The notes under the pieces: generated by a model
What the model was told of the DNA's origin: nothing
What the model saw: only the letters and a program-made list of their open reading frames with translations
Database searches by the model: none
IMG/VR virus record: IMGVR_UViG_3300045988_098849
DNA from: a virus
DNA: 54,525 nt
Direction: 5' to 3' (one strand)
Shown: one piece after another, positions 28,107 to 31,278 of the stretch
How positions within the stretch are numbered: the stretch's first letter is position 1
How the letters are laid out: each line of letters opens with the position of its first letter
Translations under genes and position numbers: made by a program

Positions 28107-28769
28107 TCAGCCGATTTTCTGCAACAGCGTTGTCATTTTAGCTTTCAAAAGAGTACGTTCTTCTGGTGTCATATCCGAAAGAATCTCTGTCACGTCACCA
28201 GAAAGCTCCTTCATGTATGCTTCAAGGTCGCGCATCTTTTGCTCTTTGTCGGACTGTGAATTTGACCTGTGCGTTTCCTTGCTTTCTGTGTAGTGGCGTT
28301 TTGCTCTTTCGTATCCGCTCATCATGGGTTCGGTATAGTACATTCTACCTCCCATACGGTCTAAATCTCTGCCACGCTCCGCATCACTCTTGCTATCCCA
28401 TTCGTGATACATATCGGGTGTCTGGAAGTAATAAGGCGGTTCTGTATAGCCTCTTCGTGTTCCTCTGCCCTTTGGTGCGAATCTACCGTCAGCGTATCTG
28501 TAATGGTCGTAGAAACGCCTGTCTCCGTCCTCGTAGTATTCGGATTTCAATCTTCTAAGGATTTCCTTATCTTCTTCTTCGTCCTCTTTCTCTGCTTTCT
28601 GCATAGCTTTTGTAATGACCGCTTTGTATTCGGCATCGTTTAAGTCTTTAATCATATCGACAACCTGACCCATTTCGGCGGTATCAACACATTCCAGACC
28701 GTTTTCCATTTTAAACCATGCCTTTTCGCAAAGACACTCAATCATTTTGTGCATTCTCTCAATGTGCAT
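28107..28769 (-). CDS. Hypothetical charged Y/R/D/E-rich protein, 220 aa
   Basis: GGAGGTG SD. Contains low complexity such as YYEDGDRRFYDHYRYADGRFAPKGRGTRRGYTEPPYYF. No enzymatic motif. Confidence 0.6.
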   Translation of the reverse strand: MHIERMHKMIECLCEKAWFKMENGLECVDTAEMGQVVDMIKDLNDAEYKAVITKAMQKAEKEDEEEDKEILRRLKSEYYEDGDRRFYDHYRYADGRFAPKGRGTRRGYTEPPYYFQTPDMYHEWDSKSDAERGRDLDRMGGRMYYTEPMMSGYERAKRHYTESKETHRSNSQSDKEQKMRDLEAYMKELSGDVTEILSDMTPEERTLLKAKMTTLLQKIG

Positions 28770-28772
28770 AAA

Positions 28773-29177
28773 TTATTCACCTCCGTCCGTTGTTGCGGGG
28801 GCACCTTCTCCGTTGATAGCAGATAATCTGTTATCTGGCGTACAGCAGGGTTCCCCTATCATTCTGAACAATCCAGAATTGTTCGTTGTCTCAACTACGG
28901 TTTTGTATCTGGTTCTTGTTCTCAAGCCAGATGCTATAACCTGTCTGCAATTACGCTTCATAAGCGGATACTGCACAGTACCGCCACCAATCGTAATAAA
29001 AACAGGAGCATTGATTGTAGTGGTATCGGGGATTTTTTGAGCCACCACAATACAAACTTTTCGGCAGTCTGCATAACTGCCAGCGGGTAAATCTATAATC
29101 AGATTTCCGCCTGTAAAATTCACTGACTGCGACATAATGAAATTATCGCAAAGTCGGCACACGTTTTTGCAAGCCAT
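28773..29177 (-). CDS. Hypothetical Cys-rich protein, 134 aa
   Basis: AGGAGGTG lies 8 nt upstream of ATG 29177. Starts MACKNVCRLCDNF, contains CIVVAQKIP and PCCTPDN. Confidence 0.6.
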   Translation of the reverse strand: MACKNVCRLCDNFIMSQSVNFTGGNLIIDLPAGSYADCRKVCIVVAQKIPDTTTINAPVFITIGGGTVQYPLMKRNCRQVIASGLRTRTRYKTVVETTNNSGLFRMIGEPCCTPDNRLSAINGEGAPATTDGGE

Positions 29178-29229
29178 AAAATAACACCTCCTAAAAAATA
29201 AGGGTAGACTTCTGCCTACCCTCTTTGTA

Positions 29230-29448
29230 TCAACCACTGTGGGCGAAGTCTGATTTAATATCAGATAGTATTTTTAGTATTTCCTTCTGGTCTTTCATTA
29301 TCTTATCCAGATAATACCCATCCTGCCTATGCAATTCTTTCAGTAGTGTATCGTTCGATACTTGCTGACACGTTACAAACTGTAAAAACACAGACAGGAC
29401 GGTAAGCATATCCAAATAAGATAACCCTTTATTTTGGTTGTCTGTCAT
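29230..29448 (-). CDS. Hypothetical small protein, 72 aa
   Basis: ATG 29448 overlaps the upstream TAA (TAATG coupling). One hydrophobic helix LDMLTVLSVFLQFV. Confidence 0.5.
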   Translation of the reverse strand: MTDNQNKGLSYLDMLTVLSVFLQFVTCQQVSNDTLLKELHRQDGYYLDKIMKDQKEILKILSDIKSDFAHSG

Positions 29449-30230
29449 TAGCAACCGCAACCGTTACCGTATCCAGAATAAGGATAAGGCGCAGGAACGC
29501 TATACGCAGGGACAGGCATAGGGTTGATTCTTCTAATCAATTCAGCTGTCTGTGCATCCTGACTTGCTGTGATGTATGCGTTCTGTGCGGACTGGGATGC
29601 AGCAAGCTCCAGTTTCTGAACCTTGTCTCTCAGTTCGGCGTTTTCCTTAGCACACAGGTAGTCGAGGATTGCTCTTGTTCCTGCGTTCTGACTGTCAATA
29701 ATATCTCTGGTGTTACTGTTCATTGTGTTCTGCAATGCACAAGTATTCTGAGCCATATTGTAATTTACGCCCTGAATAGCTTCTCTTGTTTCACAGCAGC
29801 AATTAGCTAACTGAGCCTGTAAAGCGTTTGTATTCTGCATATTAGCGACTGTATCAGCGTTAATAGCCTGCTGGATGCCGTAGCCAGTCTGCATGATGTT
29901 TGTGTTGATGCCATTAAATCCAGTAAGCATACTGTTGTTTACAGCATAGAAACCATCACATAGACCGTTGGTAATACCATCCAGTTTTCCTACGATTGCC
30001 TGAGTGTCAAAGCCTCTCTGAATATCCGCCTGTGTGGCTGCTGTTGCTACATAGCCGCCGCCATTACCGCCGAAACCGCCGAAACCGTTATTGCCCCAAC
30101 CGAAAAGCAGAGCGAAAACCACGATTATCCACAGACATCCGCCATCGCTAAAAGCACCGTCATTGCCATAACCGCCTGTTGCGGGCATTACGGGCATAGT
30201 AAAAGGTGTATTGTTTGTAGAGTTGAACAT
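29448..30230 (-). CDS. Membrane-anchored low-complexity protein, 260 aa
   Basis: AGGAGG SD. A transmembrane helix CLWIIVVFALLFGW is flanked by Gly-rich tracts. This is followed by a Q/N/A/T-rich region with CCCE, and a tail PVPAYSVPAPYPYSGYGNGCGC. Confidence 0.6.
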   Translation of the reverse strand: MFNSTNNTPFTMPVMPATGGYGNDGAFSDGGCLWIIVVFALLFGWGNNGFGGFGGNGGGYVATAATQADIQRGFDTQAIVGKLDGITNGLCDGFYAVNNSMLTGFNGINTNIMQTGYGIQQAINADTVANMQNTNALQAQLANCCCETREAIQGVNYNMAQNTCALQNTMNSNTRDIIDSQNAGTRAILDYLCAKENAELRDKVQKLELAASQSAQNAYITASQDAQTAELIRRINPMPVPAYSVPAPYPYSGYGNGCGC

Positions 30231-30309
30231 ATTAGATTCCTCCTTTTGATTGAATATTTTTATTCATAAAGAGGCACCAAGGTTTTTTGCGCGCAACCTC
30301 TAATATGTC

Positions 30310-30540
30310 TTACATACCAAAACTATCTTTTATTTGTTGCATTATTTCATCTGGGTTTACCCCTTTCTCTTTGCAGAGGTTTCTTGCCATCTGCTCTACG
30401 CCTTTGGCATCCCCCTTTTGCATCATTTCGATGGCATTTTTCGCCATAGGGTTTCCCATCACTTGACTATTGTTCATCATGCTTTGTAAAAATTGTTGCG
30501 GATTCTTTATGCCGCTAAATAACTGAAACAAGTTTTTCAT
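30310..30540 (-). CDS. Hypothetical helical protein, 76 aa
   Basis: ATGA overlap with the upstream gene. M/Q/N-rich. Confidence 0.55.
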   Translation of the reverse strand: MKNLFQLFSGIKNPQQFLQSMMNNSQVMGNPMAKNAIEMMQKGDAKGVEQMARNLCKEKGVNPDEIMQQIKDSFGM

Positions 30541-31046
30541 TCTGCATCCGCCTTTCTCTTGGTCGATTGTGCGCTTGATTTTGGCGCAGTTTTATTTATG
30601 GAAACCTCCAACTGCTCTAATATTTCCGACAGTTCATCAAACCTATCCATAAAAGCCGCAACCGTACCGTCCGACAAGTCAATTTTCAAATTCTCTTTGT
30701 TTTGGATTTCGTTTTGAGGAACAGTCTCATTTATCGGCTTGAAGATTACGGTTTTGATTGTGCCGTCAGCGTTCCATGACTTAGCCAATATTGCACTCAT
30801 ATCCTGCATTGGAAAGAACGCCGCCGAGCCATCCATAGGTACGTCATTTGCTGTTATCATTTCCACAGACTGTACCACTCGACCATTTATGCCGCTCTGT
30901 AACTGCTGCTGAAACTGATTTGTGGTTTGCAATGGCTCTATCTGTGGTTGCTGCATCCTCGGTTGTTGGAAGTACGGATTATACCCATACTGCTGATATG
31001 CTGGTTGGATATTATAGTTCATGCTCTGATAAGGATTTGGTTGCAT
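30537..31046 (-). CDS. Hypothetical protein with a Q/N/Y/P-rich N-terminus, 169 aa
   Basis: AGGAGGG SD. Starts MQPNPYQSMNYNIQPAYQQYGYNPYFQQPRMQQPQ, followed by a globular segment and a coiled-coil basic tail. Confidence 0.6.
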   Translation of the reverse strand: MQPNPYQSMNYNIQPAYQQYGYNPYFQQPRMQQPQIEPLQTTNQFQQQLQSGINGRVVQSVEMITANDVPMDGSAAFFPMQDMSAILAKSWNADGTIKTVIFKPINETVPQNEIQNKENLKIDLSDGTVAAFMDRFDELSEILEQLEVSINKTAPKSSAQSTKRKADAE

Positions 31047-31170
31047 AGTCGATTCCCTCCTTCTCTAAAACCTCCTGCACCGCCCGAACCATAACGGACT
31101 GATAAGTAAGAGGTATCTTCATTACATCTTCACGACTGAAAATTTTCTCTAGGACTTCATCTGAAAACAT
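31012..31170 (-). CDS. Hypothetical small acidic protein, 52 aa
   Basis: AGGAGG lies 9 nt upstream of ATG 31170. First gene of the accessory operon. It overlaps the next gene by 35 nt. Confidence 0.4.
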   Translation of the reverse strand: MFSDEVLEKIFSREDVMKIPLTYQSVMVRAVQEVLEKEGIDYATKSLSEHEL

Positions 31171-31278
31171 TTCCATCAACCTCCTTCTACCTATATTTTC
31201 GCATAAAAAAAGAGCCAAAAGTGTCATCTTTCGCTCAACTTTCTGTCATATATTTTTTTGTTTTGTATGGGGCTTTTC

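Follow-up and report, generated by a model that had tools for sequence, protein, structure and literature searches.

The gene block and its surroundings

The locus raises the question of what seven small, tightly packed genes of odd composition do between the integrase and the lysis genes of a phage, and whether they form one unit. The analysed stretch, referred to as the window, is the whole 54,525-nt sequence of IMG/VR virus record IMGVR_UViG_3300045988_098849. The first-pass annotation had described the seven genes as an operon in a lysogenic-conversion position, with products giving the impression of spore-coat or cell-surface matrix proteins of Firmicutes, and had offered an undescribed envelope or exclusion system as an alternative. 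What had been observed in the sequence was confirmed in our analysis, while the interpretation was supported only in part. The seven genes are real and include a five-gene cassette, built around a cysteine-rich membrane protein, which travels as a block through thousands of gut phages of unrelated bacteria.

All features are listed in Table 1. Ribosome-binding sites of the GGAGG type precede g1, g2, g4, g6 and g7, with AAGGAGG located 9 nt upstream of the g1 start, while those before g3 and g5 are weak. The block ends in a strong terminator with a 9-bp stem and a U-run (-19.3 kcal/mol, z = -5.9). A second terminator-like hairpin between g5 and g6, overlooked in the first-pass annotation, has a 10-bp stem and a U-run (-16.7 kcal/mol, z = -3.2) and may act as an attenuator. 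The composition claims made earlier were all correct. Residues 1-50 of g2 include 34 Q/N/Y/P, g3 has 27 M/Q/N in 76 residues, g6 has 8 Cys, and g7 has 81 Y/R/D/E in 220 residues. The g4 protein has Gly-rich tracts on both sides of one hydrophobic helix, a CCC triplet at residues 144-146 and the tail ...PAPYPYSGYGNGCGC.

Table 1. Features of the window at and around the gene block. Spacing is to the next gene of the block; negative values are overlaps.
Feature	Position	Strand	Size	Description	Spacing (nt)
HTH-excisionase gene	32751-33152	-		Sigma-region-4-like HTH (residues 11-62) fused to an excisionase (residues 69-133)	
int	31551-32678	-	375 aa	Tyrosine integrase, context only	
Probable attP	31279-31560			AT-rich core flanked by five ATTGGTGTA arm-type repeats	
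Weak hairpin	31205-31236	-		Hairpin plus U7 run just beyond attP, about 35 nt before g1	
g1	31012-31170	-	52 aa	Accessory protein; alternative ATG at 31176	-35 (g1/g2)
g2	30537-31046	-	169 aa	Core; Q/N/Y/P-rich N-terminus, conserved ~50-aa beta-like domain, C-terminal coiled coil	-4, ATGA overlap (g2/g3)
g3	30310-30540	-	76 aa	Core; M/Q/N-rich helical protein	+79 (g3/g4)
g4	29448-30230	-	260 aa	Hallmark; single hydrophobic helix between Gly-rich tracts, N/Q-rich helical domain with an invariant CCC...C motif, Pro/Tyr-rich tail ending in GCGC	-1, TAATG overlap (g4/g5)
g5	29230-29448	-	72 aa	Accessory protein; hydrophobic helix and coiled coil	+52 (g5/g6)
Internal hairpin	29200-29223	-		Terminator-like hairpin plus U-run	
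g6	28773-29177	-	134 aa	Core beta-protein slot; Cys-rich, N-terminal CxxxCxxC	+3 (g6/g7)
g7 (type A)	28107-28769	-	220 aa	Core R/Y-rich slot; helical ends flanking a conserved motif	
Terminator	28074-28098	-		Intrinsic terminator after g7	
g8	27727-28047	-	106 aa	HExxH protein, lineage-linked neighbour	
Endolysin-like gene	27055-27612				
HNH endonuclease				Between the holin-like and endolysin-like genes	
Holin-like gene	26034-26387				
Tail fibre gene	24514-25257				

The surroundings were also as first described. The integrase was recognized by Pfam (Phage_integrase, 1e-31), and its product matches a database entry exactly. The AT-rich gap between int and g1 holds all five copies of ATTGGTGTA found in the window, where 0.45 are expected by chance, and this fits attP arm sites. 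In a related pair of loci, L167 and L168, the prophage/phage junction maps about 255 nt upstream of g1. Host genes lie directly upstream of the block in L167 and in another locus, L085, which places it at the prophage end next to attP. The weak hairpin before g1 could be the int transcript terminator or a sib-like element; an equivalent hairpin plus T7 occurs in L167 and L168, and the T-run with the following ATGC.AAAAT is conserved. No promoter could be assigned in the window.

The genes are more than chance open reading frames. For the whole block we recorded dN/dS values of 0.01-0.16, and purifying selection acts on every gene. Against the closest relative, L003, every gene from g2 to g8 had dN/dS of 0.02-0.16 at dS 0.2-0.9 (0.10 for g2, 0.02 for g5), while g1 was 100% identical.

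Composition of the conserved cassette

To find out which genes belong together, iterated HMMs were run on 166 loci plus the window. There were two immediate observations. Firstly, the genes do travel together, as the first-pass annotation had set as a test. Of 112 g4 loci with enough flanking sequence, g2 was present in 95%, g3 in 92%, a small beta protein in 97%, an R/Y-rich helical protein in 89% and all five core genes in 84%, although the loci sampled were the best-scoring hits and include many close relatives, so that these percentages overweight a few lineages. The order never varied. In 80% of the loci a small sigma-r4/LuxR-type HTH gene was found within 3 kb upstream of g4. The HTH-excisionase gene of the window (PHROG excisionase hit at 1e-20, sigma factor hit at 1e-5) may be its counterpart, but this link to the cassette is inferred.

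The second observation was that the conserved unit differs from the seven genes first drawn. It consists of g2, g3, g4, the beta-protein slot and the R/Y-rich slot. The beta-protein slot was filled by g6 in 26 loci and by a C1q/BclA-like substitute, g6', in 83 loci, so that in most loci g6 is replaced by a protein with no detectable similarity to it (hhalign probability 0.1%). The R/Y-rich slot was filled by g7A, the type found in the window, in 83 loci and by g7B (Pfam DUF7841) in 17, and all four combinations of the alternative parts occur. The remaining genes are accessories of particular lineages. The g1 gene was found near 21% of g4 loci, only in int-adjacent lineages, and g5 near 9%, but g5 is conserved in Dulem virus 39, Clostridium perfringens phages and a Vampirovibrio contig. 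The earlier caveat that the HExxH gene g8 may or may not belong was apt, since g8 follows g7 in the int-adjacent lineages but lies near only 27% of g4 loci, always after g7 and sometimes with 1.5-2 kb inserted in between.

Sequence and structure searches

The products have no recognizable function, as had been stated. Searches of Pfam, NCBIfam, PADLOC and PDB sequences gave no assignment, and every PHROG match was of "unknown function". The g4 protein of the window is a clear member of phrog_16490 (4e-64), whereas its own g2, g3, g6 and g7 fall below PHROG significance. Relatives of g2 match phrog_21718, of g3 phrog_22984 and of g7 phrog_28802, while g6' corresponds to phrog_20016; matches of relatives to these families and to DUF7841 range from 1e-26 to 1e-71. 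One relative of g3 gave a weak STI1-HOP_DP hit (E 0.022). PDB hits to g2 covered only its C-terminal coiled coil, and no PDB relative of g7 was found. The conserved motif of g7 is YDxYRYxNGRFAPKGRGTxRRGYxEPPYY. For g6 we found 2,475 homologues with invariant C3, C7, C10, C42, C77, C111 and C112. The g8 protein matches phrog_1233 (4e-13), with SprT-like and Peptidase_M78 hits below the Pfam cut-offs. AlphaFold models of g4 and g6 were unusable, with pLDDT 39.

Only g4 has a clear transmembrane helix. The g5 protein has a borderline hydrophobic helix, and the other partners have neither a hydrophobic helix nor a signal peptide. The topology of g4 is ambiguous, with K/R more frequent on the N-flank of the helix in 61 homologues against 21.

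Genomic settings and hosts

The g4 family comprises at least 8000 clusters at 90% identity and 2,422 clusters at 50% identity, and is nearly confined to phages, with 2 hits in 72,556 plasmids. The cassette occurs in four settings: behind attP, directly after holin and endolysin, inside a head-assembly operon, and among early genes. Behind attP it is accompanied by either a tyrosine integrase or a serine recombinase. It lies on the late strand right after holin and amidase in a Vescimonas prophage, after XhlA in another context, and after an annotated holin in virulent crAss-like phages (Suoliviridae). In a 44-kb phage group it lies inside the head-morphogenesis operon, between the minor capsid protein (Phage_min_cap2) and the scaffold and major capsid genes, on the same strand. 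In C. perfringens and Bacteroides phages it lies among early or recombination genes. Candidate cultured carriers are C. perfringens phages CPD1 and vB_CpeS-17DYC and Bacteroides phage C3_41T2LP. Carrier contigs were assigned to Bacillota, Negativicutes, Bacteroidota, Melainabacteria, Akkermansia, Collinsella and others.

These settings argue against a spore-coat or strictly lysogenic role. Bacteroidota, Melainabacteria, Akkermansia and Collinsella are not known to form spores, and the cassette is often embedded in lytic operons. In addition, the proteins of the window gave no hit to any spore-coat, YjcZ or exosporium family, and no collagen-like repeats were found. On the other hand, the composition (Q-rich, Y/R/D-rich and Cys-rich proteins, with a Gly-flanked hydrophobic helix) recalls coat and exosporium proteins, g6' of other copies is weakly BclA_C-like, the cassette sits at the prophage end, and one carrier prophage abuts a split sigma-factor gene. 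We consider a lysogenic-conversion module that remodels the cell surface or spore coat very unlikely.

The settings next to structural genes allow a different reading, in which the cassette encodes an optional fibre, decoration or ejection complex of the virion. The g4 protein would be a stalk with a hydrophobic anchor, g6 or g6' its head, and g2 and g7 adaptors, with the complex packaged with or attached to the particle and cross-linked by cysteines outside the cell. This is suggested by the position in the head operon of the 44-kb group, which fits a virion role as well as a membrane role, and by the position beside virion structural genes in crAss-like phages, where annotators labelled the g4 homologues "viral fiber" or "spike". 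The similarity of g6' to the tip domain of collagen-like tail fibres and BclA points the same way, and the absence of signal peptides in the partners is as expected for proteins assembled in the cytoplasm. However, in the window and its relatives the cassette is on the strand opposite the late genes, downstream of int, and in C. perfringens and Bacteroides phages it is among early or recombination genes. Moreover, it moves as a unit with its own HTH gene between otherwise unrelated phages, which is unusual for structural parts that must fit a given capsid or tail, and no PHROG structural annotation matches any core member. This reading is possible but unlikely.

Interpretation of the cassette

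What the analysis establishes is that the block is one copy of a self-contained phage cassette that moves horizontally and has not been described as a unit; to the core and its HTH gene the window adds g1, g5 and g8. What the products do, on the contrary, is inferred, and on sequence evidence alone. Our best guess, at low confidence (about 35%), is a multiprotein assembly at the cell membrane, anchored by g4 and made during lytic growth. In this view g4, the only membrane protein of the set, would supply the anchor and a helical, cysteine-bearing stalk, and g6 or g6' a small beta-sandwich head. The g2 and g7 proteins would be adaptors combining coiled-coil or helical parts with low-complexity Q/Y-rich and R/Y-rich segments, and g3 a small Met/Gln-rich helper of g4. 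Given the ambiguous topology, the soluble partners and the large g4 domain may or may not be on the same side of the membrane. The timing is inferred from the presence of the cassette in late or early operons of virulent phages. We therefore think that it acts at the cell envelope, with lysis or egress, or keeping other phages out, as candidate roles, and do not think that it remodels the lysogen or the spore. Being next to lysis genes may, however, only reflect that both sit at module boundaries. In this phage the position behind attP would mean that the cassette can be joined to the int/early transcription unit only in the excised, circular genome.

A superinfection-exclusion or other defence module benefiting the lysogen, in which g4 and its partners would block DNA entry or trigger abortive infection, remains possible, but we regard it as doubtful. 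The prophage end next to int/attP is a classic site for sie genes and morons, and the block has its own terminator. In addition, g2 and the centre of g4 are the most diverged parts between otherwise near-identical phages, with mosaic alleles, as expected for specificity determinants, although dN/dS is low even in the diverged segments (0.13). Against it are the absence of a PADLOC match and of an identified promoter, the presence of the cassette in virulent crAss-like phages and inside a head operon, and the number of conserved genes, five being far more than known Sie systems need.

A spanin-like or holin-accessory function, with g4 as a type II membrane protein whose external coiled-coil domain helps to break the envelope after the holin fires, also seems unlikely. 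The cassette is next to holin, endolysin or XhlA in at least four unrelated contexts, and the K/R bias given above would agree with this orientation. However, in the 44-kb group the cassette lies far from the lysis genes. Most carriers are probably phages of Gram-positive hosts, which have no outer membrane. No holin or spanin family hit was obtained, no lipoprotein partner or embedded lipobox ORF was seen among the ORFs of the region, and the window phage already has a holin-like gene and an endolysin.

Comparison with known systems

The families to which the core proteins belong, phrog_16490, 21718, 22984, 20016 and 28802 and Pfam DUF7841, are all catalogued singly as "unknown function". We found no description of them as a linked cassette, and literature searches for DUF7841 and phrog_16490 returned nothing. 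The g6' protein gave weak hits to BclA_C (3.6e-4) and to the C-terminus of a PHROG "collagen like minor tail" (7.7e-5), both below curated cut-offs, but it is a stand-alone domain of ~140 aa without collagen repeats, and the g6 of the window shows no similarity to BclA_C.

In outline g4 resembles the i-spanin of the lambda Rz/Rz1 pair, with an N-terminal transmembrane helix, a long helical domain with conserved cysteines and a proline-rich C-terminus, and it is often next to lysis genes. There is no sequence match and no lipoprotein partner, however, and the four soluble partner genes have no counterpart in spanin systems. The superinfection-exclusion genes Sie2009 of lactococcal prophages and Ltp of Streptococcus thermophilus likewise involve a membrane protein encoded beside the integrase at the prophage end. 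Those are single genes of temperate phages expressed in the lysogen, while the present cassette is a five-gene unit also found in virulent phages and in late operons. Finally, the morons of the lambda b region share with the block the position between the late genes and attP, and the block has its own terminator, but no independent promoter could be shown for it, and the same unit sits in non-moron positions elsewhere.

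Gene arrangement and surroundings

The minus strand between 31170 and 28107 carries seven ORFs, g1 to g7, as the first-pass annotation had proposed. The ATGA overlap of g2 with g3 and the TAATG overlap of g4 with g5 are both present, and GGAGG-type ribosome-binding sites precede g1, g2, g4, g6 and g7. The strong intrinsic terminator reported downstream of g7 was confirmed (-19.3 kcal/mol, z = -5.9). A second hairpin with a U-run, located between g5 and g6 (z = -3.2), had been missed. The claims on composition were all correct, i.e., the Q/N/Y/P-rich N-terminus of g2, the M/Q/N-rich g3, the Gly-rich tracts on both sides of the hydrophobic helix of g4 with its CCC triplet and P/Y-rich tail ending in GCGC, the Cys-rich g6, and the Y/R/D/E-rich g7. 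The surroundings were also as described, with a tail fibre gene and the lysis region on the plus strand up to 27612 and a tyrosine integrase on the other side. The AT-rich gap between int and g1 holds all five copies of ATTGGTGTA found in the 54.5-kb window, against 0.45 expected, which is what attP arm sites look like. The observation itself therefore held. The window is a published metagenomic Caudoviricetes contig in which all these proteins are annotated as hypothetical. Coordinates of the features, in the window and in other loci, are collected in the table below.

Coordinates of the genes and sequence elements in the window and in other loci carrying g4 homologues
Sequence	Coordinates	Strand	Feature
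Window	31012-31170	-	g1, 52 aa
Window	30537-31046	-	g2, 169 aa
Window	30310-30540	-	g3, 76 aa
Window	29448-30230	-	g4, 260 aa
Window	29807-29914	same as g4	ORF embedded in g4
Window	29230-29448	-	g5, 72 aa
Window	29200-29223		Hairpin plus U-run between g5 and g6
Window	28773-29177	-	g6, 134 aa
Window	28107-28769	-	g7, 220 aa
Window	28074-28098		Intrinsic terminator after g7
Window	26034-26387	+	Holin-like gene
Window	26392-26961	+	HNH endonuclease gene, between the holin-like and endolysin-like genes
Window	27055-27612	+	Endolysin-like gene
Window	31205-31236		Hairpin plus run of seven T, just beyond attP
Window	31551-32678		Tyrosine integrase
Window	32751-33152	-	Excisionase fused to an N-terminal sigma-region-4-like HTH
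Window	27600-32800		Region compared with the closest relative, L003
L085, Lachnospira intestinalis CLA-AA-H89B (NZ_JBBMFS010000001.1)	6218-6706		162-aa ORF holding only sigma-70 regions 3 and 4
L168	7521-8651		Integration module with tyrosine integrase and Tn916-type Xis
L169	7480-8841		Integration module with serine recombinase
L173, Caudoviricetes sp. vir335 (BK063680.1)	4503-5426		g4 homologue
L007; L019, 44-kb phage group	10368-10598; 11276-11350		tRNA-Met and tRNA-Tyr genes
L007; L130	6233-6706; 9866-10234		120-160-aa protein with conserved Cys and His
L167	19568-19771		67-aa product with a Pfam AcrIC5 (anti-CRISPR) hit
L166, Bacteroides phage C3_41T2LP	7434-7898		PolyVal metallopeptidase gene

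Selection and recombination

In the closest relative, locus L003, int, attP and g1 are 100% identical in nucleotides to the window. Identity drops abruptly at the g1/g2 border, and from g2 onward dS jumps to 0.2-0.9, and to 2.2 in the centre of g4. The dN/dS ratio stays at 0.01-0.16 for every gene and segment examined, and all eight ORFs, i.e., g1 to g7 and the HExxH gene g8 that follows, are therefore under purifying selection. A recombination breakpoint lies at the g1/g2 border. Identity is 78-87% in g2 and 56-74% in the centre of g4, with saturated dS, which points to recent recombination and mosaic alleles of these two genes. Positive selection as the cause of the divergence in g4 and g2 was rejected, since dN/dS is 0.10-0.13 and dS is saturated, so that these are older alleles brought in by recombination.

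Conservation of gene content and order

A first tblastn survey of 162 loci holding a g4 homologue showed the same gene order wherever neighbours were detectable. Iterated HMMs were then built for each gene from diverse examples, and all ORFs of 166 loci plus the window were scanned. Among 112 loci with at least 2 kb upstream and 2.5 kb downstream of g4, g2 was present in 95%, g3 in 92%, a small beta protein in the next slot in 97%, and an R/Y-rich helical protein after it in 89%. All five core genes (g2, g3, g4 and the two slots) were found together in 84% of the loci, while g8 was found in 27%, g1 in 21% and g5 in 9%. A small sigma-region-4/LuxR-type HTH gene lies within 3 kb upstream in 80%. 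The order never varies. The loci are the best-scoring hits of two collections and include many close relatives, so that the percentages overweight a few lineages, but the set drawn from genome assemblies is taxonomically diverse and shows the same pattern. The window has all five core genes in the canonical order on one strand, with the full pattern sig-g1-g2-g3-g4-g5-g6-g7A-g8, where sig is the HTH gene. In the window a sigma-region-4-like HTH is fused to the N-terminus of the excisionase, and it may be the counterpart of the free-standing HTH of this kind that precedes the cassette in other phages.

The beta-protein slot is filled by g6, as in the window, in 26 loci and by another protein, g6', in 83 loci. 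The two were considered as possible homologues, but hhalign found no similarity between them (probability 0.1%). The next slot is filled by g7A, as in the window, in 83 loci and by g7B in 17 loci. The g7B proteins match Pfam DUF7841 at 1e-27 to 1e-34, while g7 of the window gave no DUF7841 hit. All four combinations of the alternative parts occur.

Failure of the genes to travel together had been named in advance as evidence against a module, and the survey showed that they do travel together, although the unit had to be redrawn as a five-gene core with accessories. The first-pass interpretation was thus only partly supported, since a module exists, while its reading as a spore-related or lysogenic-conversion system was not supported.

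Genomic positions and host range

The cassette was found in at least four distinct places. Firstly, it lies behind attP, as in the window. In locus L167 it is the first thing after host genes. In L168 the identical cassette follows a Tn916-type Xis and a tyrosine integrase, and in L169 it follows a serine recombinase instead, with sequence identity beginning only about 40 nt before the g1 start codon. The integration module has thus been swapped, with a sharp breakpoint. In the Lachnospira intestinalis locus L085, host pyrI, pyrB and a tRNA synthetase gene precede the cassette. The sigma-70 ORF listed in the table lies directly beside this prophage end and looks like the 3' half of a sigma-factor gene split by the prophage, which recalls the sigK intervening element named in the title of a paper on C. 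perfringens phages PhiS9 and PhiS63 (PMC3442830). The prophage of L167 also carries the gene with the AcrIC5 hit. Host genes lie directly upstream of the cassette in L085 and L167, and downstream in locus L170. The location at the prophage end, outside the essential modules, is that of a lysogenic-conversion moron.

Secondly, in Vescimonas fastidiosa the cassette lies directly after the lysis genes on the late strand, at the other prophage end, in the order tail, holin, amidase, g2-g3-g4-g6', host genes. Thirdly, it lies inside the head-assembly operon of a group of about 44-kb phages, in the order terminase, portal, minor capsid protein, a 101-aa membrane protein, HTH, g2-g3-g4-g6'-g7A, tRNAs, scaffold, major capsid protein. 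This context favours a role in the virion, which is the main rival to the reading we prefer. In L007 of this group and in L130, an unrelated context, a small protein with conserved Cys and His lies near the cassette, upstream in one and directly downstream in the other. The L007 protein matches phrog_3754, "unknown function", and the resemblance between the two was judged by eye only. Fourthly, the cassette lies among early or recombination genes in the C. perfringens phages CPD1 and vB_CpeS-17DYC and in Bacteroides phage C3_41T2LP. In the latter, the PolyVal metallopeptidase gene lies directly after the g7B homologue, four genes downstream of g4, and weakly matches our g8 HMM (E 5e-4). A small zinc-protease-like gene may therefore recur near the cassette in distant phages.

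In crAss-like Suoliviridae, g7B and g4 follow genes annotated as holin and LysB/FtsL-like. In the crAss-like phage cr109_1 several genes, including the g4 homologue, contain in-frame TAG codons, and the g4 and g7B HMMs match well once TAG is read as a sense codon, consistent with stop-codon recoding. In an Onthomorpha contig an XhlA gene (7e-14) lies just upstream of the cassette. The presence in crAss-like Suoliviridae and inside a head operon shows that the cassette is not confined to temperate phages, contrary to what is expected of a lysogenic-conversion moron.

Contigs carrying the cassette are assigned to Lachnospiraceae, Oscillospiraceae, Negativicutes, Bacteroidota, Melainabacteria, Akkermansia, Collinsella and others. 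Binning of phage contigs into MAGs can be wrong, but the spread is wide. Since cassettes occur in contigs assigned to Bacteroidaceae, Onthomorpha, Vampirovibrio and Akkermansia, lineages not known to sporulate, they are not restricted to spore-forming hosts. A g4 homologue was also found in Caudoviricetes sp. vir335, a predicted Methanomassiliicoccales virus (HMM E 2e-13). It has a Gly-flanked hydrophobic helix, two CCC motifs and an N-terminal extension of about 110 aa, but no other cassette member was detectable there. In total, g4 forms 2,422 clusters at 50% identity and is almost absent from plasmids, with 2 hits in 72,556 records.

Features of the encoded proteins

The g4 protein is a clear member of phrog_16490, "unknown function" (E 4.2e-64, residues 7-260 against profile positions 7-281 of 286). 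Across 31-89% identity it keeps one hydrophobic helix between Gly/Asn/aromatic tracts, the motif CCC(E/T)T(N/R)xxID.V.Y..A.NTC, a coiled-coil-like stretch, and a tail, P.P.PAY...PY...GCGC. Only g4 has a clear transmembrane helix and g5 has a borderline hydrophobic helix, while the other partners have neither a hydrophobic helix nor a signal peptide. The K/R bias around the helix weakly favours N-in (61 homologues against 21), but the N-tail is net acidic, and the topology inferred from charge bias is thus ambiguous. A g3-like segment fused to the N-terminus of the crAss-like and archaeal-virus g4 was seen by eye only and was not detected by the g3 HMM.

The g6 protein has invariant C3, C7 and C10 (CxxxCxxC), as well as C42, C77, C111 and C112. 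The alternative protein g6' gave two independent weak hits to C1q/TNF-like fibre heads, Pfam BclA_C at 3.6e-4 and the C-terminus of a "collagen like minor tail" PHROG at 7.7e-5, and this resemblance to a fibre tip also favours the virion reading. The g2 protein combines a Q/P/Y-rich N-terminus, a conserved domain of about 50 residues and a C-terminal coiled coil. An AbrB/SpoVT-like swapped-hairpin domain was considered for g2, but the hit to Abh (2fy9) at E 0.17 with 12 sequences weakened to E 1.2 with a 24-sequence profile. The g3 protein is Met/Gln/Asn-rich and helical, and one relative gave a weak STI1-HOP_DP hit (E 0.022). The g7A protein has helical ends around a conserved R/Y/G motif. 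The g8 protein contains an HExxH motif (HELCH), with scores below the Pfam cut-offs for Peptidase_M78, the ImmA/IrrE family (18.9 bits against 22), and for SprT-like zinc proteases (19.4 against 25.6), and it matches phrog_1233, "unknown function", at 4e-13.

Pfam and NCBIfam searches gave no significant hit for g1-g7, and no match to a spore coat or exosporium family (BclA, YjcZ-like) was obtained for the proteins of the window; only g6' of other loci is weakly BclA_C-like. No significant hit to any component of known anti-phage defence systems was found for g1-g8 in PADLOC. Searches of PDB sequences with single proteins (g2, g4, g6 and g7) and with profiles (g6', g2, g4 and g7A) gave nothing or only coiled-coil noise. 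AlphaFold2 models of g6 (36-sequence alignment) and g4 (40-sequence alignment) both had a pLDDT of 39, too low for a meaningful fold comparison. These alignments held only close homologues, 66-94% identical to the query, and a new search with a diverse profile did not return more distant proteins. Upstream of g1 only weak promoter-like matches were found, no more than in shuffled sequence, and no convincing promoter could be assigned. A weak hairpin followed by seven T lies between attP and g1, and an equivalent lies just upstream of the first cassette gene in the related lineage L167/L168. By its position it could terminate the int transcript only in the excised form, like lambda sib.

Predicted role of the cassette

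The analysis demonstrates a portable unit of five or six genes, under purifying selection, centred on a membrane protein and usually accompanied by its own small HTH gene. What follows on its function, assembly and expression is inference from sequence and gene context. We suggest that the products form one assembly on g4, in which g4 would be the anchor and stalk, g6 or g6' the head, g2 and g7 adaptors with coiled-coil and low-complexity parts, and g3 a helper of g4. Since the cassette sits in late or early operons of virulent phages and next to lysis genes in several unrelated contexts, we favour production during lytic growth and action at the envelope, in egress or lysis, or in exclusion of other phages. 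Our confidence in this mechanism is low, about one in three. In the window, the position beyond attP means that the cassette is joined to the int/early transcription unit only in the circular genome. A virion role is somewhat less likely in our view, and exclusion or defence in the lysogen and a spanin-like role remain possible but doubtful. The spore-coat and lysogenic-conversion reading is the least likely, because of the host range and the lytic-operon contexts.

A more far-reaching possibility, which we regard as tentative, is that the cassette encodes a new kind of phage machine, a membrane-anchored, cysteine-rich stalk-and-head assembly with low-complexity adaptor proteins and its own small transcription factor. 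In this view it would be shared by temperate and virulent gut phages of Gram-positive and Gram-negative bacteria, and perhaps by an archaeal virus, and would carry out an envelope-level step of infection that has not been recognised, such as egress, exclusion or protection of progeny.

No part of this unit has a known function, yet it keeps its gene order in phages of several bacterial phyla. That degree of conservation and mobility implies a function that pays off in many hosts, and the exchange of non-homologous parts at two positions suggests a modular machine. Should the function turn out to be a new step of phage egress, exclusion or particle protection, it would annotate thousands of "hypothetical" genes in gut viromes at once. 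The cassette is a large, conserved and mobile piece of gut-phage dark matter, and several carriers are in culture, namely C. perfringens phages CPD1 and vB_CpeS-17DYC, Bacteroides phage C3_41T2LP, and the lysogens Lachnospira intestinalis CLA-AA-H89B and Vescimonas fastidiosa MM35.

Comparison with known systems

The single families are listed in PHROGs and Pfam as "unknown function", and literature searches on DUF7841, phrog_16490, the cultured carrier phages and general descriptions found no functional study and no paper on the families or on the cassette. Known systems offer only partial analogies, and their defining features were mostly not found. Holins are small proteins, whereas g4 has 260 aa and gave no holin hit, and the phage has a separate holin-like gene. 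Spanins have an outer-membrane lipoprotein partner with a lipobox, separate or embedded, but no partner of g4 has a signal peptide or a hydrophobic N-terminus, and the only same-strand ORF embedded in g4 has no lipobox. Spanins also have a type II topology with the coiled-coil domain outside the cytoplasmic membrane; for g4 the K/R bias weakly favours N-in, while the N-tail is net acidic. The analogy with i-spanins concerns the outline of g4. C1q-like fibre heads are the nearest analogy for g6', and the int-adjacent sie genes and the morons of the lambda b region are the nearest for the position of the cassette in the window.
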